DNA of 64,000 nt from Escherichia phage EC128, in the sequence record ON210139.1. One strand, given 5' to 3'. A program made the translations under genes and the position numbers. Under the pieces are notes generated by a model. That model worked only from the letters and a program-made list of their open reading frames with translations. It was not told the origin of the DNA and did not search any database. Shown here piece by piece: positions 3,667-61,684 of this stretch. The stretch's first letter is position 1. Every line of letters starts with the position of its first letter.

Positions 3667-4476
3667 TTAGAAACGAGATGCGACTTTCGCATATACACTT
3701 ACAATATCTTCTGCACCAGGTGCAGCTTTATCTTCTACAGCTTCAGTGACGAAATTCAGTCCGGCTGCTTCAGTATCAGGAGTATTTATACTCTCAGTAA
3801 TAGTGCTTTCATCTTTATTAGATTTCTTCACCATTTCTACGATTGCACTCAATTTACTTGAGAATGCATCTGAATAATCCATACCTTCGACCAGAGCAGA
3901 GACTTTTTCTTTTTGAGACTCAGTCAGATCTTTAGTACTTTCGCTCAATGCCACTTCACGCTGCACATAATTGATATATGCGTCACGCTTATTGAGTTCT
4001 TCGAACAGACGAGCTGATTCTTCTTTATGTTCTTGCAGCTCTTCTTCCATTTCAGCTACAATATCAACTGATTCTTCTGGAACAACAACGTTGTGTTCAA
4101 CAAAGAGCTCTTTTAATCCACCAAGCATGGATTCAAACAGTTCGGCTTTGATGCCTTTATCAACTGCTAATTTATTTTCAGCGAGCCATTCTTTTGCAAG
4201 ATGGTCAATGAATTTAGAAGCTTGCTCAGCGATTTTCTTCTCAGCTTTTTCTTCGGCTTCTTCTTTATTTTTTTCTACTTCTTCTTCTGCTTTTTCAGCA
4301 ATTTTAGCGATATGAGATTCAGCTAATTTAACGGCGTGCTGCTTGACGGTAGCTTCGAATACAGTGCCGAAAGTTTCTTTTGCTTCCGGAGAAATATTAA
4401 CTGATTCGAAAATACTATCAAGAGCAACGGAAGCATCAATTTTCTGCGCTTCGGCAATCAGTTGTTCTTTAAGCAT
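3667..4476 (-). CDS. 22: Prohead scaffolding core protein gp22
   Basis: 269 aa acidic, coiled-coil-rich ORF between gene 21 and 23; length matches recalled T4 gp22. Confidence 0.9.
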   Translation of the reverse strand: MLKEQLIAEAQKIDASVALDSIFESVNISPEAKETFGTVFEATVKQHAVKLAESHIAKIAEKAEEEVEKNKEEAEEKAEKKIAEQASKFIDHLAKEWLAENKLAVDKGIKAELFESMLGGLKELFVEHNVVVPEESVDIVAEMEEELQEHKEESARLFEELNKRDAYINYVQREVALSESTKDLTESQKEKVSALVEGMDYSDAFSSKLSAIVEMVKKSNKDESTITESINTPDTEAAGLNFVTEAVEDKAAPGAEDIVSVYAKVASRF

Positions 4477-4506: not shown

Positions 4507-5145
4507 TTATAACGCTTTTTTCATGGCCTCTGCGAGAGCCATATAGGCGTCATCGGCACTTGTATCGGCTTCCGCCGTCTGTGATTCGGTAATTTCCTTA
4601 GGAGTTACCCATGCATCTGGAGCACTTGGACCCCATACTGCATCAACACCTACAGTTAATTTGAATCCTTCGTTTACGATACGATAACCTTTATTTGTGT
4701 CAGTCAATGAACCTAATCCACGAGAAGAAACTCCTGGAATCCATCCGGCACGAATATTAGCTGCTAATTTATCTCCAGGACCATGGTCACCTTCAATAAC
4801 ACGAGCTCGTCCGTATACGTCATTTCCTTTCCACCACATATCTTCTATAATGATAGCGGCTTGCATCGGGTCAACATTAGCGCGTGGAGGATGATTTAAT
4901 TCTCCGAGAGCTTGTTTAGTTAAAACTTGCTCATTAATATAGTCTTTTACCGCTTTTTCTAATATACGTTTTGGATAAAGACGTTTATTTCTATTGACGA
5001 CTTCCGCTTGCATGAATATTCCTTCGATGTATAAACCCGGTTTTAAACCTAAGTCTTTTCCATCATGAGATTCAAGCATTGGTACGCCATCAATAATTTC
5101 GCCAGGTTGACCCCAAGTTTCAATTAGTAATTGGGGTTCATTCAT
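4507..5145 (-). CDS. 21: Prohead protease gp21
   Basis: 212 aa ORF in the T4 position between 68 and 22; length matches recalled T4 gp21. Confidence 0.9.
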   Translation of the reverse strand: MNEPQLLIETWGQPGEIIDGVPMLESHDGKDLGLKPGLYIEGIFMQAEVVNRNKRLYPKRILEKAVKDYINEQVLTKQALGELNHPPRANVDPMQAAIIIEDMWWKGNDVYGRARVIEGDHGPGDKLAANIRAGWIPGVSSRGLGSLTDTNKGYRIVNEGFKLTVGVDAVWGPSAPDAWVTPKEITESQTAEADTSADDAYMALAEAMKKAL

Positions 5146-45950: not shown

Positions 45951-46496
45951 ATGAGAAAAGCACTACTCGCTGGTCTATTGGCCATTTCTATGATGGCACA
46001 TAGCTCCGAGCATACTTTCAGTAATGTCCAACTCGATAACATGCGTTACGCGTATCAATTCGGGGAACAATTTTCCAAGGATGGAAAATATAAAACACAT
46101 AAAAATATCCACAAGAGCGGATTAGGTCATATAATGGCTGCTATTTTATGGCAAGAAAGCTCTGCCGGAGTTAATTTAAAATCTAAACCAAAGCATCATG
46201 CCTACGGAATGTTCCAAAACTATTTGCCGACCATGCGAGCAAGAGTTAAGGAACTTGGTTATAATATGACCGATGCTGAAATAAAAAGAATGTTGAATAA
46301 ACGGTCCAATTCAGCTTCCTGGGCGTACATTGAACTTTCTTATTGGTTAAATATACATAAGGGCGATATAAGAAAAGCAATATCCTCTTATAATTCGGGA
46401 TGGAATGTTAAAGCAGGTTCTAAATATGCTTCTGAAGTCCTAGAAAAGGCTAACTACCTTAAAAATAATAAACTGTTGGAAATAGTAAATGACTAA
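45951..46496 (+). CDS. vs.1: Secreted lytic-transglycosylase-like protein
   Basis: 181 aa ORF with N-terminal signal peptide MRKALLAGLLAISMMAHS and a QESS motif reminiscent of SLT-domain catalytic Glu; T4 vs.1 position. Confidence 0.6.
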   Translation: MRKALLAGLLAISMMAHSSEHTFSNVQLDNMRYAYQFGEQFSKDGKYKTHKNIHKSGLGHIMAAILWQESSAGVNLKSKPKHHAYGMFQNYLPTMRARVKELGYNMTDAEIKRMLNKRSNSASWAYIELSYWLNIHKGDIRKAISSYNSGWNVKAGSKYASEVLEKANYLKNNKLLEIVND

Positions 46497-53433: not shown

Positions 53434-54402
53434 ATGAAAACTGTAACTATCAATAAGGGTATCTACTTCGGTAAAGAAATCTCTGGAACTTTTGAGCTCT
53501 TAGGTGAATGGTTCCCAGATAATGCTCCGGTAGATGCACAAGGAGATGGTAAAGTTTTTGTTGAAATTGACGGTAAGCGTCGCGGTGTTTGGGTTTACAA
53601 ATCAGACATTTCATATGATGGTGTAAAAGTTGAAGAAGTTAAAGAATCATATGAAGATATGAAAACCCGCATTAATAAAAGATTTAATGTTATGGGAATG
53701 ATGACGAATGGTATTATTAACGGAAACATTCGTTCATTAATTATCTCTGGTGCGGCGGGTATTGGTAAAACGTATTCTTTAGATAAAGCTTTGAATAAAG
53801 CAAATGATAATGGATACATTGAATATAAAAGCATTAACGGTAAAATCTCCGGTATCGGTCTTTATGAACAACTTTGGAATAATCGTGAAGAGAATTCTGT
53901 CCTTTTGATTGATGATGTGGATGTTTTCTCTGATATGGACATTCTTAATCTTCTGAAAGCTGCTCTGGACACTGGAGAGACCCGTAAAGTCTGCTGGAGC
54001 ACTGCATCTTCTTACTTAGAAGAAAAAGGCATTGAGCGTGAGTTTGAATTTAAAGGAACGATTGTTTTTATCACAAACGTTGACATTGACCGCGAATTAG
54101 ACCGTGGTACTAAACTTGCTCCACATTTACAAGCATTAGTGTCCCGCTCAGTTTATTTAGATTTGGGTGTTCACACTAATGAAGAAATTATGGTCAGGGT
54201 TGAAGATGTTATTCTTTCAACTGACATGATGCAAAAGCGCGGTCTTTCTGATGAAGAAACTTATAAAGCATTATCATGGATGAAAGTCAATGTTAATCGT
54301 TTACGCAATGTTTCACTGCGTACTGCTCTTTATCTTGCTGACTTTATTATGACCGACAAAAACGGTTGGGAAGAAATCGCTGAAACAGTATTATTAAAAT
54401 GA
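53434..54402 (+). CDS. AAA+ ATPase
   Basis: Start at MKTVTINKG after a GGAG RBS (track ORF starts upstream); Walker A GAAGIGKT, Walker B VLLIDDVD, sensor-like FITNV. Confidence 0.65.
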   Translation: MKTVTINKGIYFGKEISGTFELLGEWFPDNAPVDAQGDGKVFVEIDGKRRGVWVYKSDISYDGVKVEEVKESYEDMKTRINKRFNVMGMMTNGIINGNIRSLIISGAAGIGKTYSLDKALNKANDNGYIEYKSINGKISGIGLYEQLWNNREENSVLLIDDVDVFSDMDILNLLKAALDTGETRKVCWSTASSYLEEKGIEREFEFKGTIVFITNVDIDRELDRGTKLAPHLQALVSRSVYLDLGVHTNEEIMVRVEDVILSTDMMQKRGLSDEETYKALSWMKVNVNRLRNVSLRTALYLADFIMTDKNGWEEIAETVLLK

Positions 54403-55118
54403 AAAAATATTTTACTATCTATAAAACTGAAATATTAAATTTAAAGACAGGTATTAAGAAATACTATTATGGTCGACATATAACTAATAATATCAATGAT
54501 TCGTATGTTGGTAGTGGAAATTATATAGAACGTGTAAAAGTGTCAAATGACCACATATTATCAAAAACGGTTTTAGAAGTTTTTGATAATTATGATAAAA
54601 TGGTACAAGCTGAAATATTATATATCATGGCAGGTAAATTGAAATATGGGAAAAACTGTGTTAACCTGTCATACGGGGGTGAAGGAGGAAAGGTTGCAGA
54701 TGAAACTAGGATAAAATGCAAAAAGCATTCTATAAATTTATGGAAAAATCCTAATCATATACAGCATATGAAGAAAAAGATGAAAGAGGTCACATCCACG
54801 CCGGAAGCTAAATTAAACACTTCAATAAAAACTTCGCAACGATATAAGGACCCGGTTTTTGTTAGAAAAGTTAGTAATATTATTAAAAAGAAACTAAGCA
54901 ATCCTGTAGTAAAAGAAAAGCATATTAATGGAATTAAAGCTGCAAAGCGTTCTCATTTAACTATATGGCAGTATGAAGATGAATTATTCGAGCTCTGGAA
55001 AGAAACTAAATGTGGATGGAGAAAATTTACAAAGGAAGCTATAAAACACGGATATCCAAATGAACCGTATCGTAGTATGGTATCAACTTTTCAGAAAAGA
55101 CATTTAGAAGAATCCTAA
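54399..55118 (+). CDS. Seg-like GIY-YIG homing endonuclease
   Basis: N-terminus YFTIYKTEILNLKTGIKKYYYGRH plus VGSG...NLSYGGEGG aligns with the SegB ORF at 36835 (YTYKIT..IYIGVHS, MGSG..NLKLGGEGG). Confidence 0.75.
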   Translation: MKKYFTIYKTEILNLKTGIKKYYYGRHITNNINDSYVGSGNYIERVKVSNDHILSKTVLEVFDNYDKMVQAEILYIMAGKLKYGKNCVNLSYGGEGGKVADETRIKCKKHSINLWKNPNHIQHMKKKMKEVTSTPEAKLNTSIKTSQRYKDPVFVRKVSNIIKKKLSNPVVKEKHINGIKAAKRSHLTIWQYEDELFELWKETKCGWRKFTKEAIKHGYPNEPYRSMVSTFQKRHLEES

Positions 55119-55200: not shown

Positions 55201-55503
55201 ATGTTATACTCAAAGGCTCGTGAAATTTACGAAACTAAGATTAAAGAAGCTGTATTTCAGTTCGCAACGACAATGCGATGGACAAATGATTGGGAGTATT
55301 CAAAAAATCATAAGAAGCCCATGGTGACAAGAAAGGCTCATATGTTAGTGTTAATAGACCGTGAGCAGATTAAAGCCCGAGAAGCCCTCCAGAATCATAA
55401 AAAGGCTGCCTTTGAATGGTTTATGGATAACACTGCTCCTGAGACTAAGAAAGCGGTAAGCGCGTGGTTCAGTGGAAAAAATTGTGAAAGAAGTTTCTTT
55501 TAG
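55201..55503 (+). CDS. Hypothetical protein
   Basis: About 100 aa from the ATG after a GGAGG RBS (track start 55189). Confidence 0.45.
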   Translation: MLYSKAREIYETKIKEAVFQFATTMRWTNDWEYSKNHKKPMVTRKAHMLVLIDREQIKAREALQNHKKAAFEWFMDNTAPETKKAVSAWFSGKNCERSFF

Positions 55504-55505
55504 TG

Positions 55506-55540
55506 GTTTACAAGACCGTTCCTCTGTGGTACTATACAAC
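55506..55540 (+). promoter_or_regulatory. Early promoter (PeSL-like module with conserved leader)
   Basis: -35 GTTTACA, -10 TGGTACTAT and leader GGTACTATACAACTATCAACTAC. Confidence 0.6.
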
Positions 55541-55563
55541 TATCAACTACGGAGGAACAGAAA

Positions 55564-56091
55564 ATGAACGCTAAAGATATTTTCAACCTGGTAAATTACA
55601 ACGATGGTAAATTTAAATCAGAAGCACAAAGCAAGTTCTTTAATGACATCTCAATCGGAGGTGAAATCACTGTTAATGGAGGACAAATTTACAAATCCCG
55701 TTGGAATTGGATCGTTATTATCGATGAGATTGGTATTGTAGAAATTTACAAGAATACGAATAAAAATCGTACATTACACTGGTCTCGTGATACTAACGAA
55801 CAGTACAAAAAGGATAAAGCATCTAAATTATCTCGTGTAACTCAAGAAGATATTGAGTTCATCAAGAAAGATATTTTAATGTATGATAACTTAATTGCTG
55901 AAGAGCAAGCTGTTATTGATAAATTTGACGAAATTAAAGCTTCTCGTGAAATTCCTGATTTTATGAAAGAATCAGTAAATGAACGATACTCTCTCATTTC
56001 AGAGCGTATTGAAACTTACAAAAAGCAAAGAGCTGAACGCCAAAATACTCTTCGGAAGTTTGAAGAACGGTTAAAGACGGTACTCGCATAA
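55564..56091 (+). CDS. Hypothetical protein with C-terminal coiled coil
   Basis: 175 aa ORF with GGAGG RBS. Confidence 0.5.
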   Translation: MNAKDIFNLVNYNDGKFKSEAQSKFFNDISIGGEITVNGGQIYKSRWNWIVIIDEIGIVEIYKNTNKNRTLHWSRDTNEQYKKDKASKLSRVTQEDIEFIKKDILMYDNLIAEEQAVIDKFDEIKASREIPDFMKESVNERYSLISERIETYKKQRAERQNTLRKFEERLKTVLA

Positions 56092-56092
56092 C

Positions 56093-56117
56093 TGCTTTAT
56101 ACCAAGGATGGTATAAT
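56093..56117 (+). promoter_or_regulatory. Candidate MotA-dependent middle promoter
   Basis: TGCTTTA (MotA-box-like) 12 nt upstream of -10 TATAAT with TG extension. Confidence 0.4.
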
Positions 56118-56146
56118 GGTTCTAAGCCCTTTTAATTGAGATTATT

Positions 56147-56548
56147 ATGAAACAGTTGATAATTAAAAGATTGAATTTATTGATATGTTGTTTATGTATA
56201 GTAATTGCATATGGTTATTATGCTATTAATGATTATATGCATTATAAAGATTATGATGTTACTGTAGTTAATACCCTTACAGGAACTCAAGGAAAGGGGT
56301 CTAGTTTATCGTTTATTGCTGTATATGAACTAAATGACGGTTATAGATTTAGTGAATATATTTCACCAGAGATGTATTCTTCAATAGAAAAAGGCGATAA
56401 TATTACTGTAAGTTTACGTCCTTTCGACGTAAAACAGACATGGTTTGATAATATTGTTTGGTTCTTTGGAATGGTATTAGTTCAATCTGTGTGTGGTGCT
56501 TATATAGTCTTTTCAATCTTATTCTGTGTATTTAGTAAAATTGAGTGA
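56147..56548 (+). CDS. Membrane protein (N- and C-terminal TM helices)
   Basis: 133 aa ORF with hydrophobic helices LNLLICCLCIVIAYGYYAI and IVWFFGMVLVQSVCGAYIVFSILFCVF. Confidence 0.5.
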   Translation: MKQLIIKRLNLLICCLCIVIAYGYYAINDYMHYKDYDVTVVNTLTGTQGKGSSLSFIAVYELNDGYRFSEYISPEMYSSIEKGDNITVSLRPFDVKQTWFDNIVWFFGMVLVQSVCGAYIVFSILFCVFSKIE

Positions 56549-56555
56549 GGAAAAT

Positions 56556-57443
56556 ATGTCAGCGGTAATTAATAATGTCAATGCAGTAATTAAATCTTTA
56601 GTTAATAAAAAATCAAATGAATGGACTGTACTTCAACGCGACAAGTCAGATAAATTTTTTCATAAATTTAACCCAGTACTAAATTTAAATGTTATTGATA
56701 AAGATGTTCACGCCGAAATTTTAGATAAGTTTAAAGTTGATATTGGATTTGGATTAGAAAAACATTTACAACGAACAAACGAGTCTGGAATGCTTTTATC
56801 TAATCGCATCATGAAAGCCCTTAATAAAATTGGAGCATTGTCTCGCATTAACGCGAGTGAAATTCTTCGCAATTATAATAAAGGATATGACCTTTATGGC
56901 CGACTAATGCCAAAATTATCATTCGACCAAATGATTGCGGATTTGTGGGAAAATCAACGACGATTATTAGCATTAGGTGCTCGATTAGCTAAAGGTCTAG
57001 ATAAACAAATGATTTTTAAAACTAATAATACAGAAGACCTTAAATGCTTTAAATTTAGTACTCGTGGAGATGATTATTACGTCAGAGCTCACTCTACAGA
57101 TTATGTTAATATGGGGCATCATCTCTGTTTAGCTTTTGAAGTTTTAAAAGAAGCTGGAACATTAGAATATGTGTCTGGTGCTAAATGCCCGATTGGTTCA
57201 AGTTGTATTTTAATTTATCGCCCGGATGAATCCAGTTCATCTAAATTGCCTACAAAACCTGCACCAGTTCGTAGTAACGAAAAACATTCTGAACAAATTG
57301 ATTATTTTAATAAGCAAATTGAAGAGCTGAATATTTCTATTCAACGATATGACGATGAAATTTTCAGACTATCTGGATTGAGTAGTAAAGCTAAATCTGA
57401 ACGTGAAAAATTAATTAAAATTGTTGATTTACTTAAATCTTAA
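56556..57443 (+). CDS. Paralog 1 of a four-member tandem family (globular N-domain plus C-terminal coiled coil)
   Basis: About 295 aa from MSAVINN; shares the central motif L-x3-(R/K)(R/K)-x-L-x3-A-x-L-x-G-x-D and a C-terminal heptad-rich tail with the next three ORFs. Confidence 0.55.
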   Translation: MSAVINNVNAVIKSLVNKKSNEWTVLQRDKSDKFFHKFNPVLNLNVIDKDVHAEILDKFKVDIGFGLEKHLQRTNESGMLLSNRIMKALNKIGALSRINASEILRNYNKGYDLYGRLMPKLSFDQMIADLWENQRRLLALGARLAKGLDKQMIFKTNNTEDLKCFKFSTRGDDYYVRAHSTDYVNMGHHLCLAFEVLKEAGTLEYVSGAKCPIGSSCILIYRPDESSSSKLPTKPAPVRSNEKHSEQIDYFNKQIEELNISIQRYDDEIFRLSGLSSKAKSEREKLIKIVDLLKS

Positions 57444-57451
57444 GGAACACC

Positions 57452-58471
57452 ATGAAAACTCGTTCTCAAATTGAAGATATGGTTCGTAATGCCAGTTATA
57501 CTCGTGATGTTATGACATTTTTGTGCCAAAATAATTTAGACCCTGATAAAGTTAATCGTGATATTCACTTTAAATATCTAAATAGCATTGAATTGTTACG
57601 TCATTTTAGTAAAGCGGGGTATATTACACAAATGACTGCTCGTGAGCAGCTCACCGATTTCTGTAAAACTATTGATTATAAAAATCCTCTATTTGTTCAA
57701 GGCGTTGGTCAGAGTAAGGTCGATTTATCATCTGGATTTTTCAATCCAAATCATTATCGTCTTGAATGGAGATTTATTGCTCTATTCCGTAAACAATTAA
57801 AGCAAATTTTGTCTACTGCTAGTCGATTAAAAGGTTCTGATATTAACTTAAAGAATCTGAAATTTGATGGTTATACTCTTCAAATGGAAGTAAGACCATC
57901 TAAAGAAAATAATAGAACTGCACGAATTAGCTTTAAGCCTAATACTAAAAATTCTCTTTCAATTTGTGAATGCCTTAAATCGCAGTTGACAGAAGCATTT
58001 AAGTATATGGATGTTGTTGCTGCTGTTCAATCTAAGATTTTACCTCGTTTTGAGCGAAATTGGGAACATACAACAACATATGAACTTGATATGATCGTTT
58101 CATTTAAATACGATTTTTTGAGAAAGGACGAAGTCCCGCAAGAGAAAAAGCAAGAAGTGCAAGATAACTTAAATTTATCCAATTACTCATCAAACGATCC
58201 TAAATTTTGGATGTATAGTTCAGGTAATAAAGATGCATGGAAATTCAATAAAGTGAATTTTCTTCCTGTTGAAAATCCGAGTCTTAAACCTGTTGAAAAA
58301 TGGCACGCGGATGCGATTGAGAAGTCTATCAAGGCAGTAGATGATGAACTCGTTAAAGCAACTAATGAAGTGTTAGAAGCTGAAAAGATGTTAGAAAAAG
58401 CTCAAGAAAAAGTCAAAAATCTCGCGAAGCAACGTTCTAAACTGAACAATGCACTAAATGCACTAAACTAG
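57452..58471 (+). CDS. Paralog 2 of the four-member tandem family
   Basis: 339 aa; N-terminus MKTRSQIEDMV like paralog 4; motif FRKQLKQILSTASRLKGSD; C-terminal coiled coil. Confidence 0.55.
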   Translation: MKTRSQIEDMVRNASYTRDVMTFLCQNNLDPDKVNRDIHFKYLNSIELLRHFSKAGYITQMTAREQLTDFCKTIDYKNPLFVQGVGQSKVDLSSGFFNPNHYRLEWRFIALFRKQLKQILSTASRLKGSDINLKNLKFDGYTLQMEVRPSKENNRTARISFKPNTKNSLSICECLKSQLTEAFKYMDVVAAVQSKILPRFERNWEHTTTYELDMIVSFKYDFLRKDEVPQEKKQEVQDNLNLSNYSSNDPKFWMYSSGNKDAWKFNKVNFLPVENPSLKPVEKWHADAIEKSIKAVDDELVKATNEVLEAEKMLEKAQEKVKNLAKQRSKLNNALNALN

Positions 58472-58500
58472 TTTACTTTGCCACAAGGATGTGGTATAAT
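58471..58500 (+). promoter_or_regulatory. Early promoter
   Basis: -35 GTTTAC, extended -10 TGGTATAAT. Confidence 0.6.
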
Positions 58501-58528
58501 GTTCTTACTTTCTACTGAGGAGATTATT

Positions 58529-59530
58529 ATGACTCGTAACGAATATATCAAATCATTCAATAGCGTTATTGATGATAAAGTTAAACCTGTGTTTAGTCAG
58601 AATAGTGTTATTTCCATTATCAATCAATGGCTAAATAATATTGATGTAAGCATTGTTTCTTCCAGCAAATTTATTCACGAAGTTCGTGAAATTTCTAGTC
58701 GTACAGATAAAGATGACATTAAGAAAACCTTTAAAGGGTCTCGTCTTCTTTCATACTTAGTCAACAGAGATATTCTTGGTAAATTTGGGAAAGAAATTAA
58801 ACGAACTAAAGATGTAATAGGATACAGTTGGTTCGGTGATGTTAATTCTTATCATCTTAATAATAAAGAAGACCCTGAGAATATTTTTACTCGTCGTTGG
58901 ATTAGTAATTTTAGACTTTTCAAGAAGCAAATTCTAAAATCAGCTTCTAAATTATGCTATGGTGATTATCGTCAAATCCATCCTTGGGCTTCTGATATGA
59001 TTATCATAAAAGAATATGAGCTTGATAAAAATAAAGCAGCTATTTTTGTGAATTATGAATTTTTTACACCAGAAGCTAATCAAAAGAACATTAATAAATT
59101 TTTCTCAATTGCTAGCGATATAACTCGTCAGTTAGAGACCGCATTACTTTGTATGGAAACAGTAGAAAATATTCATACTTATCCTTTTAAGAATATATGC
59201 GGTTGGGAAGGATATAAAATTGTAGTTAGTCTCCGTGAAGTAAAGTGTGCGTACTCACCGACTGATAAAGAAATTTACCAACAAAAATGTGATGAAATTG
59301 TGAATACTCCTAAAGAAGAAACTACCCTTGAGGAACTAATGGAATGTCTTGACGATTCGCCTGAACCAGTAGAAATTCGTCCAGAAGTTATTGCACTAGA
59401 AAAAGCTTATAAAGAAGTTCTAGAAATTTCTAATAAAGCGCAGAAAGAATATGAGCAGGCTAAAAGGATTTGGGAAGAATCTGTTAATCGCCTGGATCGT
59501 CTTGAACAAGCTTTACAGTTAATTAAGTAA
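58529..59530 (+). CDS. Paralog 3 of the four-member tandem family
   Basis: 333 aa from MTRNEYIKSF after a GAGGAG RBS; motif FRLFKKQILKSASKLCYGD; C-terminal coiled coil. Confidence 0.55.
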   Translation: MTRNEYIKSFNSVIDDKVKPVFSQNSVISIINQWLNNIDVSIVSSSKFIHEVREISSRTDKDDIKKTFKGSRLLSYLVNRDILGKFGKEIKRTKDVIGYSWFGDVNSYHLNNKEDPENIFTRRWISNFRLFKKQILKSASKLCYGDYRQIHPWASDMIIIKEYELDKNKAAIFVNYEFFTPEANQKNINKFFSIASDITRQLETALLCMETVENIHTYPFKNICGWEGYKIVVSLREVKCAYSPTDKEIYQQKCDEIVNTPKEETTLEELMECLDDSPEPVEIRPEVIALEKAYKEVLEISNKAQKEYEQAKRIWEESVNRLDRLEQALQLIK

Positions 59531-59582
59531 TTTAAAGCCAAGGATGGCTCGGAGTATAAATCATTAACCAAGTGAGAAGAAC

Positions 59583-60512
59583 ATGAAAACTCGTAAACAT
59601 TATATTGATTATTTTGACAGCCTTATTACTAAACATCGTAATTATCAGATCGGGCACAGAGCAGTAATCAATAATATTCTTCGTGATTTCCTTCAATATG
59701 TTGGCCAGGAAAATCATATCTGTAAAGATACTCAGAACGCTTATTCTCATTCGTTAGGCAATTTGCTTCAATGGTTTAAACGTTCTCGTCTGTTATCTTC
59801 TACTGTAGCTCGTGATAACATTGAAAACTTTATGAAGCCGAGCTTCATTAAATCTGCGACATCTATAACCGATTTGGTTGAATTTACTATTGTTAACGAT
59901 GTTAAAAAGACCCATTTGGCTGATTGGTTATCTACCATTCCCGAAACTAAATTTGCTGATAAATTCGCTTGTCAATTCAATGACCAAGTGAATATGCTTT
60001 TTAAGCATGCTCGTAAACTATTTACCGCGGGCGATGACCGTACAAATACAGTTCATGTTAAGGATTGGGTTATTGCTGATGAAGTAACACATAAGCCAGG
60101 TGGTTCATCAGTATTAATTAATATCCAGGTTCCTTATTATTACTCACGTAATCTCGGCACCATGAACTCTAGAGAAATTAATAAGCACAACAAAACTATT
60201 CGTTCGTTGTCTTATAAACTCCGCATGATGTTAAAAATCATGGACGTAGTAGAAATGTATGACGAAACCGAAGATAATGGTTCAATGCTGTACAGTTCAC
60301 GCATTCTAATTAAACTGAAGAACCCTAATACATATAAGCCAGTTGTAAAAGAACCTAAAGCAGAAAAGGCTGATAACCTGAGTGAAGAACGCGAATATCT
60401 CAAATCTCGACTGGTTGAAGTTGAAGCCCAGATTGCCGAACACACCAAATTGTTAAAAGCTCTTAATGCAAAAGCAAATGGTTTACGTAATGCTATTGAG
60501 GTACTGAAATGA
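59583..60512 (+). CDS. Paralog 4 of the four-member tandem family
   Basis: 309 aa; MKTRKHYIDYF; motif LFKHARKLFTAGDD; C-terminal coiled coil. Confidence 0.55.
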   Translation: MKTRKHYIDYFDSLITKHRNYQIGHRAVINNILRDFLQYVGQENHICKDTQNAYSHSLGNLLQWFKRSRLLSSTVARDNIENFMKPSFIKSATSITDLVEFTIVNDVKKTHLADWLSTIPETKFADKFACQFNDQVNMLFKHARKLFTAGDDRTNTVHVKDWVIADEVTHKPGGSSVLINIQVPYYYSRNLGTMNSREINKHNKTIRSLSYKLRMMLKIMDVVEMYDETEDNGSMLYSSRILIKLKNPNTYKPVVKEPKAEKADNLSEEREYLKSRLVEVEAQIAEHTKLLKALNAKANGLRNAIEVLK

Positions 60513-60805
60513 AAAAGCGCTTATTAGAAGATATTGCCGAAGCTTCAGATTTTCCTGAATGGACTCCATGCGCTGGGTTTGATAAAGGGCTGCTAGTTAC
60601 CGACGATTTAGACTTTAAACCTCCAGCATGGGATGCCATTATGGCTATGGTTAGTCGTCGTGAGCAATCTTCTAAGAATGTTCCAAACTGCCCAAAGTGT
60701 GGTACTGAACAGGTACAATTAGTTCATTGGCAGACTAGTATTCTTCGTTATAAATGTCGTCATTGCAAACACCGATTTAACCGAGAAGAAAATGACCAAG
60801 CGTAA
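60509..60805 (+). CDS. Small zinc-ribbon protein
   Basis: 98 aa ORF with C-terminal CPKCG...x17...CRHCKH pair of CxxC motifs. Confidence 0.5.
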
Positions 60806-61034
60806 AGAATATATGGAGATTGCTGAAAAGGCAGTCCGTGAATTAGCAATAGCGTATTATAATGAACATGGTAAATTTCCTGATAGATACAGCGTGCTTA
60901 AATCTGCTTTAACTCGTTCATATAAAAATATGCTATCAGAAGTAAGTGATATTATATACAAACATAAAGAACAAACAGGCCAAAGTCTTGATTACGACGA
61001 GACTTTTAAACAAGTATTAGGAATTAAGGAATAA
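60792..61034 (+). CDS. Hypothetical protein
   Basis: 80 aa ORF immediately upstream of nrdC. Confidence 0.5.
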
Positions 61035-61035
61035 T

Positions 61036-61299
61036 ATGTTTAAAGTATATGGTTATGATAGCAACATCCACAAATGCGTGTATTGCGATAATGCAAAACG
61101 TCTTTTGACCGTGAAGAAACAGCCGTTTGAATTTATCAACATTATGCCGGAAAAAGGTGTTTTTGATGATGAGAAAATCGCTGAGCTTCTGACTAAACTA
61201 GGTCGTGATACTCAAATCGGCTTAACAATGCCTCAGGTATTTGCTCCTGATGGAAGTCATATTGGTGGATTTGACCAATTGCGGGAATACTTTAAATGA
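61036..61299 (+). CDS. nrdC: Phage glutaredoxin/thioredoxin NrdC
   Basis: 87 aa ORF with active-site CVYC; recognised as T4 NrdC. Confidence 0.93.
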   Translation: MFKVYGYDSNIHKCVYCDNAKRLLTVKKQPFEFINIMPEKGVFDDEKIAELLTKLGRDTQIGLTMPQVFAPDGSHIGGFDQLREYFK

Positions 61300-61511
61300 T
61301 GCTCGAAGGAACTGATTATATCCATGATTACCGCGGAAGCGCGGTATATGTAGGTGATGAAGTTGTAGTTTATTATGGGTATGGAACTTTGATGACAGCA
61401 AAGGTTATTCAAATTAAAAATAATCGTGCTAAACTTGAAGTTTATTATTCTAATGGTGAAAAGTCTATTTCTAAGTGGAAATATGGCGATTGTATGGTCA
61501 AACTGGGGTAA
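61296..61511 (+). CDS. Hypothetical protein
   Basis: 71 aa ORF. Confidence 0.45.
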   Translation: MMLEGTDYIHDYRGSAVYVGDEVVVYYGYGTLMTAKVIQIKNNRAKLEVYYSNGEKSISKWKYGDCMVKLG

Positions 61512-61513
61512 AT

Positions 61514-61684
61514 ATGATTTACGATATTAATGTAGCAAGAGCTCCGTCAATGGTTACTATTCCTGCTAAAGAACTAGATCGTCTTCATAAAATTGAAGAA
61601 CTTCTTTGGGAAATTGAATCTGATTTGCCATCAGGATTAGAATCCTGGATTGATTATGAAGAACTTAATAAGCTTCGGGGTTAA
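61514..61684 (+). CDS. Hypothetical small protein
   Basis: About 56 aa from MIYDINV after a GGGG RBS; track ORF starts upstream. Confidence 0.35.
   Translation: MIYDINVARAPSMVTIPAKELDRLHKIEELLWEIESDLPSGLESWIDYEELNKLRG

Follow-up and report, generated by a model that had tools for sequence, protein, structure and literature searches.

The four consecutive genes between positions 56556 and 60512 of a stretch of Escherichia phage EC128 (ON210139.1) raise the question of whether they form one family and, if so, what such a family does. The window, that is, the whole stretch of 64,000 nucleotides analysed, belongs to a Tequatrovirus genome, with 97% identity to phage AV119 and about 90% to T4 across this region. 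A preliminary description made from the letters alone had listed four tandem plus-strand open reading frames (ORFs) and proposed that they are paralogues of the kind expected of host-specificity or anti-defence factors under diversifying selection. All four ORFs were recovered (Table 1), each with an ATG start and a Shine-Dalgarno-like sequence. By position and similarity, their products, designated p1, p2, p3 and p4, are the orthologues of T4 nrdC.6, nrdC.5, nrdC.4 and nrdC.3, which the T4 annotation lists as hypothetical proteins flanked by nrdC.7 and nrdC.2. With modest confidence, we lean towards a diverged family of non-enzymatic accessory proteins, made early or in the middle period, that disarm bacterial immune proteins.

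Homology and architecture of the four proteins

Each protein was matched over its full length to a database family. For p1, the match to phrog_2257 had an E-value of 1.5e-147, and PF26899 was recorded on all 109 homologues. For p2, the Pfam family DUF7235 matched with 416.6 bits (cut-off 30, E 9e-125); this protein is 92% identical to T4 NrdC.5, equal in length, and syntenic with it between nrdC.6 and nrdC.4. Both p3 (E 3.5e-166) and p4 (E 4.2e-116) matched phrog_1435, with PF26897 recorded on close homologues. In many GenBank records matching window positions 55500-61300, every gene from nrdC.1 to nrdC.11 is called “thioredoxin”, with as many as 12 such labels per locus; these were apparently propagated from the gene names “nrdC.x”. 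A thioredoxin or glutaredoxin assignment was rejected for the four proteins, as no such Pfam match was obtained and CxxC occurs in none of them.

Pairwise BLASTP among the four proteins detected p3-p4 alone (E 7e-8, 24% identity over 271 residues), so profiles were needed. These were built from orthologues of Tequatrovirus, Mosigvirus-like phages, Dhakavirus and Gaprivervirus and compared by hhalign. The nrdC.4 and nrdC.3 profiles matched with a probability of 97.9%, and nrdC.5 matched nrdC.4/3 with 94.7% (E 6e-8) across 175 columns in the globular part, a match that persisted at 92% (E 5.7e-7) once the coiled coils had been cut away. Judged by profile comparison, nrdC.5, nrdC.4 and nrdC.3 have a homologous globular core. 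An exhaustive search of the cluster representatives with the p3 plus p4 profile returned 10 representatives, with no link beyond the family and no bacterial homologues, and a related-locus search with p3 alone returned five near-identical loci only.

For nrdC.6, inclusion in the same superfamily is quite likely. Comparison with each of the other families gave P 0.004-0.012 (0.005-0.012 when trimmed of the coiled coil), and comparison with the merged nrdC.5/4/3 profile gave P 9.6e-4. The merged comparison scored 33, a value that none of 40 column shuffles reached (mean 14, maximum 20). The alignments are collinear, with motifs A and B in register across the four proteins. Membership is further supported by a bridging protein, by the same secondary-structure order as in nrdC.5, by common neighbours in BFVD and by a shared promoter cassette. 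The bridge is a 338-aa syntenic protein of Enterobacter phage Q7622, which matches nrdC.6 (full-length E 4e-8, trimmed 1.2e-4) as well as nrdC.4/3 (1.8e-5 and 7.9e-4); both trimmed alignments cross motif B. The BFVD matches common to the p1 and p2 models are two uncharacterised proteins of T4-like phages, A0A0A0PZG4 of PM2 (1e-5 and 2e-6) and A0A1Z1LY96 of CBH8 (4e-6 and 3e-4).

It is possible, though unlikely, that nrdC.6 is unrelated, its size, central helix motif and coiled-coil tail being convergent or its C-terminal module acquired, and that the family here has three members. Such a reading would fit the lack of a significant BLASTP match for nrdC.6, hhalign probabilities of only 3-22%, and the separate family in which Pfam and PHROGs hold it; the coiled-coil module is also swappable, as the natural fusion in phage Manna (described below) indicates. 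Convergence or module capture is less easily reconciled with the collinear motifs, the score above every shuffle, the Q7622 link through motif B and the beta core, the shared order of secondary structure with two significant BFVD neighbours in common, and the CCAAGGATGG promoter cassette that precedes nrdC.6 as well. The paralogy of the four genes proposed at the outset thus stands for p3-p4 and for p2 against p3/p4, and is probable for p1.

A common architecture was observed in all four proteins, comprising a basic alpha/beta domain, a flexible or disordered linker and a heptad-rich C-terminal helix of 47-59 residues. In AlphaFold2 models of p1 and p2, a folded alpha/beta region gives way to a linker of low confidence, with a long helix at the C-terminus (pLDDT, the per-residue model confidence, 77 for p1 and 69 for p2, with about 85 in the p2 core). 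From motif B onwards, both models run through a helix pair, a beta-hairpin, a helix, a second beta-hairpin, the disordered linker and the long C-terminal helix. The isoelectric point (pI) is 9.2-9.4 for whole p1, p2 and p4 and 6.2 for whole p3, with globular domains at 9.0-9.6, and the linkers are high in Pro, Glu, Lys, Ser, Thr and Gln. Hydrophobic residues occupy 0.69-0.88 of the heptad a/d positions in the four tails, against 0.15-0.24 of the other positions, and every tail finishes within one residue of the C-terminus with L-x-x-A/I-(L/I/V)-x-x-L-K. The coiled coil is kept within each orthologue set; across paralogues, only the heptads and this terminal motif are retained. The layout of a variable N-domain followed by a conserved heptad tail, as first described, is therefore borne out by the models and the a/d occupancy, while the conservation of the tail between paralogues goes no further than the heptads and the end motif.

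The central motif noticed in the preliminary description, here motif B, is real, and hhalign sets it in register in all families. Upstream of and collinear with it lies motif A, with the pattern K-x-F-K-x-S/G-x-L-S...F-x-K, represented in p1 to p4 by KALNKIGALSRINASEILRNYNK, RHFSKAGYITQMTAREQLTDFCK, KTFKGSRLLSYLVNRDILGKFGK and QWFKRSRLLSSTVARDNIENFMK, respectively. The resemblance first seen between the N-termini of p2 and p4 consists of M(K)TR and is not exclusive to that pair, as p3 has M(K)TR too. The invariant columns are largely hydrophobic, with a few Arg, Lys and Asn. The family alignments showed no conserved constellation of Cys, His or acidic residues, and no Pfam enzyme domain was found, which points to a non-enzymatic nature of the four proteins. 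None of the families gave a significant match in profile searches of PDB sequences, indicating that no structure has been solved for them.

Promoter cassettes, copy number and allelic variation

Each unit of the array has its own putative sigma-70-type promoter cassette. The middle-type cassette ahead of the array had been noted before, and its TGCTTTA box, 12-nt spacer and TATAAT fit the T4 consensus, from which a middle promoter function is predicted; the spacer contains CCAAGGATGG (56102-56111). A cassette of this type was also found upstream of nrdC.6 in T4, VR7, IME281, P896, ABTNLsp5 and two metagenomic contigs. The early promoter previously placed within the array likewise fits the T4 consensus. 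Its GTTTAC overlaps the nrdC.5 stop codon and its spacer has the hairpin-like CCACAAGGATGTGG (58480-58493). T4, G8 and other Tequatroviruses have the identical promoter. It occupies the same nrdC.5/nrdC.4 junction in four genera, and its position is also conserved in VR7, IME281, JK45, P896, ABTNLsp5, DK-13 and AV111. Upstream of nrdC.3, the cassette is degenerate in the window, with its spacer element at 59538-59547; JK45 and AV111 have a canonical counterpart (TTTACaaCCAAGGATGGttggagTATAAT) ahead of their nrdC.3-like gene. In these two phages, all three paralogues, the nrdC.6-like gene included, have a cassette about 50 nt upstream. Spacer elements were also located at 4870, 5926 and 6946 in locus L010 and at 4370, 5426 and 6443 in locus L017.

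A 10-bp element, CCAAGGA(T/C)GG, was thus observed between the -35 and -10 boxes upstream of every array unit in several genera. Possible natures of this element include a regulator's operator, an RNA hairpin and a relic left by duplication. A further exact CCAAGGATGG occurs at 46075, inside a coding region. The shared cassette and spacer element fit duplication of promoter-plus-gene units, a common regulator, or both. The small membrane protein gene described ahead of the array corresponds to nrdC.7, a predicted membrane protein in the T4 annotation. It lies between promoter and nrdC.6 in Tequatrovirus only, being absent in VR7, IME281 and JK45, and does not belong to the family.

A tblastn search of 50,697 phage records identified nrdC.6 in 741, nrdC.3 in 653, nrdC.5 in 584 and nrdC.4 in 553 records, all of them enterobacterial Tevenvirinae. 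The copy number varies by genus. Tequatrovirus has four copies, with the array in about 465-500 of about 500 genomes. Three copies are present in Mosigvirus-like phages (JK45 and AV111; nrdC.6-, nrdC.5- and nrdC.3-like) and in Dhakavirus and Gaprivervirus (nrdC.6, nrdC.5 and nrdC.4). Jiaodavirus, Kanagawavirus and Acinetobacter T4-like phages have a single syntenic gene upstream of nrdC. The single gene of JD18 encodes 324 aa and is nrdC.4/3-like (94%), and the syntenic protein of Q7622 is likewise the product of a single gene. In Acinetobacter phage Lazarus, the product has 343 aa and a coiled-coil tail, with 36% identity to an fHyAci03 gene product of about 333 aa; the p1 model also matched a 335-aa fHyAci03 protein. 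We infer that one ancestral gene, located upstream of nrdC, gave rise to the array as promoter-plus-gene units were duplicated in tandem.

Variation in the array, which is dispensable, also takes the form of sporadic deletions, fusions and pseudogenes, and natural rearrangements are common. In Manna (L011, 4215-5252), an in-frame fusion joins residues 1-269 of nrdC.6 to residues 251-333 of nrdC.4 just before the coiled coil, and nrdC.5 is lost. In Pinarejo (L012, 5001-5141), nrdC.6 is reduced to its last 47 codons, and in G8 (L002, 4512-5544), nrdC.4 is split. Sf25 (P0077) has an 83-residue internal duplication in nrdC.6, and contig P0056 carries an nrdC.5::nrdC.3 fusion. The T4 reference itself (L001, NC_000866) has a 1-nt deletion in nrdC.6, aligned to window position 57330, relative to the window and to other relatives. 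The resulting frameshift falls just before the coiled coil and gives 275 aa instead of 295, with the coiled coil still encoded downstream, out of frame. P0076, in which the nrdC.5 coiled coil follows a foreign N-terminal domain, was not used as evidence, since this 803-nt contig is a possible assembly chimera.

Measured against the window sequence, the ratio of non-synonymous to synonymous substitution rates (dN/dS) was 0.13-0.27 in the four genes and 0.02-0.10 in the flanking genes. These values indicate faster evolution under purifying selection and not gene-wide positive selection; the diversifying selection first suggested therefore finds no gene-wide support, the ratios being well below 1 even though above those of the flanks. 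Within nrdC.5, variable sites among about 50 Tequatrovirus cluster representatives made up 57% of the N-terminal 54 residues, 82% of the linker, 22% of the core and 39% of the coiled coil. For nrdC.3, deeply diverged alleles were observed. The allele in the window shares 60% identity with the T4 type (dS > 1) and 76-80% with the Mosigvirus type, and this greater closeness to Mosigvirus suggests exchange between genera. The divergent block (59615-60814), a mosaic hot spot, covers nrdC.3 and extends over half of the zinc-ribbon gene nrdC.2, namely the first, with 55-66% nucleotide identity to T4 against 90-100% in the surrounding region. This divergence looks like replacement by an old allele rather than rapid adaptive change.

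Table 1. Coordinates of the array genes, their domains and motifs, and the adjoining promoters (positions in the window; aa, residues of the protein)
Feature	Position	Strand	Description
p1	56556-57443	+	nrdC.6 homologue, 295 aa; phrog_2257 / PF26899 (Phage_T4_Y05B)
p2	57452-58471	+	nrdC.5 homologue, 339 aa; phrog_2351 / PF23882 (DUF7235)
p3	58529-59530	+	nrdC.4 homologue, 333 aa; phrog_1435 / PF26897 (Phage_T4_Y04OP)
p4	59583-60512	+	nrdC.3 homologue, 309 aa; phrog_1435 / PF26897; nrdC.4 paralogue
p1 coiled coil	57276-57440	+	aa 241-295; preceded by linker aa 223-240
p2 coiled coil	58292-58468	+	aa 281-339; preceded by core aa 55-225 and disordered linker aa 226-280
p3 coiled coil	59378-59527	+	aa 284-333; preceded by core and acidic linker aa 251-283
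p4 coiled coil	60369-60509	+	aa 263-309
Motif A, p1	56814-56882		
Motif A, p2	57599-57667		
Motif A, p3	58724-58792		
Motif A, p4	59769-59837		
Motif B, p1	56943-57002		
Motif B, p2	57785-57841		
Motif B, p3	58910-58966		
Motif B, p4	59997-60038		
nrdC.7 homologue	56147-56548	+	small predicted membrane protein (T4 annotation); phrog_2547; PF26908 (Phage_T4_Y05C)
Middle-type promoter, putative	56093-56117	+	upstream of nrdC.7/nrdC.6; MotA box TGCTTTA (56093-56099), TATAAT (56112-56117)
Early-type promoter, putative	58471-58500	+	upstream of nrdC.4; GTTTAC (58471-58476), TGgTATAAT (58492-58500)
Degenerate cassette, putative	59531-59560	+	upstream of nrdC.3; TTTAAA, then gCCAAGGATGGctcggag, then TATAAA

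Candidate role in immune evasion

A central function has already been published for one member of the array, and for the rest it is a testable prediction. A T4 deletion clone failed on ECOR17 owing to the sirtuin defence Dsr1 (Srikant, Guegler & Laub, eLife 2022, PMC9391042), and nrdC.5 alone, supplied on a plasmid, restored plating of the deletion phage on MG1655 carrying ECOR17 dsr1. The mechanism was not given in that paper and the neighbouring paralogues were not addressed. In the literature on nrdC.5, whether under a new name or mechanistic, nothing was found beyond this report, and no later work on the other three genes was found either. A 2026 Nature paper (PMC13581612) describes that the Avs7-type sensor of E. 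coli Dsr1 recognises the major capsid protein. As the orthologue of T4 NrdC.5, p2 is a predicted anti-Dsr1 protein. The anti-defence or host-specificity role suggested in the preliminary description thus agrees with the published rescue in the case of nrdC.5, and the other three genes lie outside what that experiment covered.

Given that nrdC.5 counters Dsr1 and that family ties connect it to nrdC.4 and nrdC.3 and probably to nrdC.6, these three are good candidates for further immune-evasion genes. The accessory behaviour of the array is in line with this, namely the raised dN/dS, the variable N-terminus and linker, the nrdC.3 alleles, the deletions and fusions, and the differences in copy number. 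In the proposed mechanism, the proteins would be made ahead of the late structural proteins and act stoichiometrically as inhibitors. The globular domain would bind an immune sensor, by analogy Dsr1 in the case of nrdC.5, and binding would prevent activation of the NADase, much as DSAD1 blocks DSR2. The coiled coil may oligomerise the inhibitor and so provide avidity, and the paralogues may cover different sensors or sensor variants, in which case the array would widen the host range.

Several points weigh against this proposal. The array is near-universal in Tequatrovirus and under purifying selection, which also fits a conserved non-immune role; no phenotype for nrdC.6, nrdC.4 or nrdC.3 was found in the literature; and the basic globular domains could bind nucleic acid instead. 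The window nrdC.5 differs from the tested T4 allele at 8% of residues, and binding of NrdC.5 to Dsr1 is an analogy with DSAD1/DSR2. The nrdC.6 link has weak statistics, and the full-length score of the Q7622 protein is inflated by the coiled coil. The first three of these points would equally suit a situation in which nrdC.5 is the sole anti-defence gene and the others have unrelated host-takeover or regulatory roles, such as binding of nucleic acid or of host proteins. We consider this rather improbable, as the other three keep the architecture and promoter cassette of nrdC.5 and a position beside a proven anti-defence gene and, as is typical of accessory counter-defence loci, are sporadically lost, fused or replaced by other alleles.

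A different target is conceivable, with a still lower probability. The proteins might bind unassembled virion proteins of the phage itself and hide them from pattern-recognition immune receptors, the capsid protein in the case of nrdC.5 and other structural proteins in that of the paralogues, with a fold borrowed from a docking virion protein. A highly speculative extension holds that the family derives from, or mimics, a virion tail-terminator or tail-completion fold, and that promoter-plus-gene duplication yielded early decoys or shields, one for each receptor, co-regulated through CCAAGGATGG. Their receptors would be those that sense conserved virion proteins, including Dsr1 and Avs7-type sensors and other Avs families. 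A narrower idea, in which nrdC.5 serves as a tail-terminator decoy for Dsr1, was given less weight, since it is the major capsid protein that triggers Dsr1. Direct inhibition of immune sensors by a diverged family remains the reading we lean towards.

To our knowledge, no earlier work has described the superfamily link, the common architecture or the shared promoter cassette; the growth from a single gene to three or four and the likeness to a tail-terminator fold are likewise new. T4 is the best-studied lytic phage, and yet three of these four genes lack an assigned function and the fourth has a phenotype without a mechanism. If they do form one family with one architecture, a single published result becomes a concrete and cheap experiment on the other three. 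The allelic forms of nrdC.3 and the frameshifted nrdC.6 of T4 offer ready-made natural variants, and many systems reuse the Avs7/Dsr1 sensor. Correcting the widespread thioredoxin labels is also relevant to the choice or engineering of T4-like therapy phages by host range.

Neighbouring genes and known systems

Upstream of the array, nrdC.8 (55564-56091) differs from the four paralogues in being very highly conserved from genus to genus, and it terminates in a helical tail. It was considered as a member on account of this tail and one 175-aa BFVD match, and was rejected for its lack of profile similarity and its far higher conservation. The product of nrdC.10 (53434-54402), a P-loop NTPase for which Pfam gave weak AAA / nSTAND3-type matches, was discarded as unrelated. 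Between nrdC.10 and nrdC.9 lies a 239-aa ORF (54399-55118), absent in T4 and most of the relatives compared and present with 98.7% identity in one related locus (L003). Its N-terminus is GIY-YIG-like by eye (YYYGRH...YVGSG), which suggests that it is probably a Seg-like homing endonuclease; it has no Pfam match. Downstream of nrdC, positions 61300-61683 contain small ORFs and are not similar to T4, where genes 49.3-49.1 are located; the G8 counterpart of one ORF is annotated “antitoxin from a toxin-antitoxin system”.

With respect to Pfam and PHROGs, the four proteins are full-length members of PF26899, PF23882 and PF26897, and of PHROGs 2257, 2351 and 1435. Pfam already places nrdC.4 and nrdC.3 in one family, and the databases list three unrelated families of unknown function; the present comparison ties nrdC.5 to nrdC.4/3, with nrdC.6 probably joining them. 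In terms of T4 NrdC.5, p2 is its orthologue; a globular core shared with it was recognised in p3 and p4 from the profiles and is probable in p1. The superfamily link, the architecture and the promoter cassette are absent from PMC9391042.

Among characterised inhibitors, the closest functional analogue is DSAD1 of phage SPbeta. It stops the NAD-depleting SIR2 defence DSR2 by binding the sensor region in competition with the structural-protein trigger. The analogy is one of function only, since sequence and fold give no support for DSAD1-like membership. Acidic DNA mimics of the Ocr or Arn anti-restriction type were rejected on the pI values given above. Tail terminator and tail completion proteins (lambda gpU, P74-26, T5 p142 and SaPI1 DUF3168) were compared as well and share 5-12% identity, with no profile similarity, and their structural scores are matched by unrelated alpha/beta sandwiches. 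In contrast to these proteins, the nrdC genes are early or middle genes outside the structural module, and their products have an additional N-terminal region, a linker and a coiled coil; membership in this group was accordingly rejected on profile similarity and gene location. A closer parallel in genome organisation is the T4 dmd-tifA-adfA “anti-toxin-antitoxin island”, likewise an early accessory cluster that varies among phages and is dispensable in the laboratory. The genes of that island each counter a different host defence and bear no sequence relation to one another, whereas the array described here is a paralogous expansion with a common architecture.

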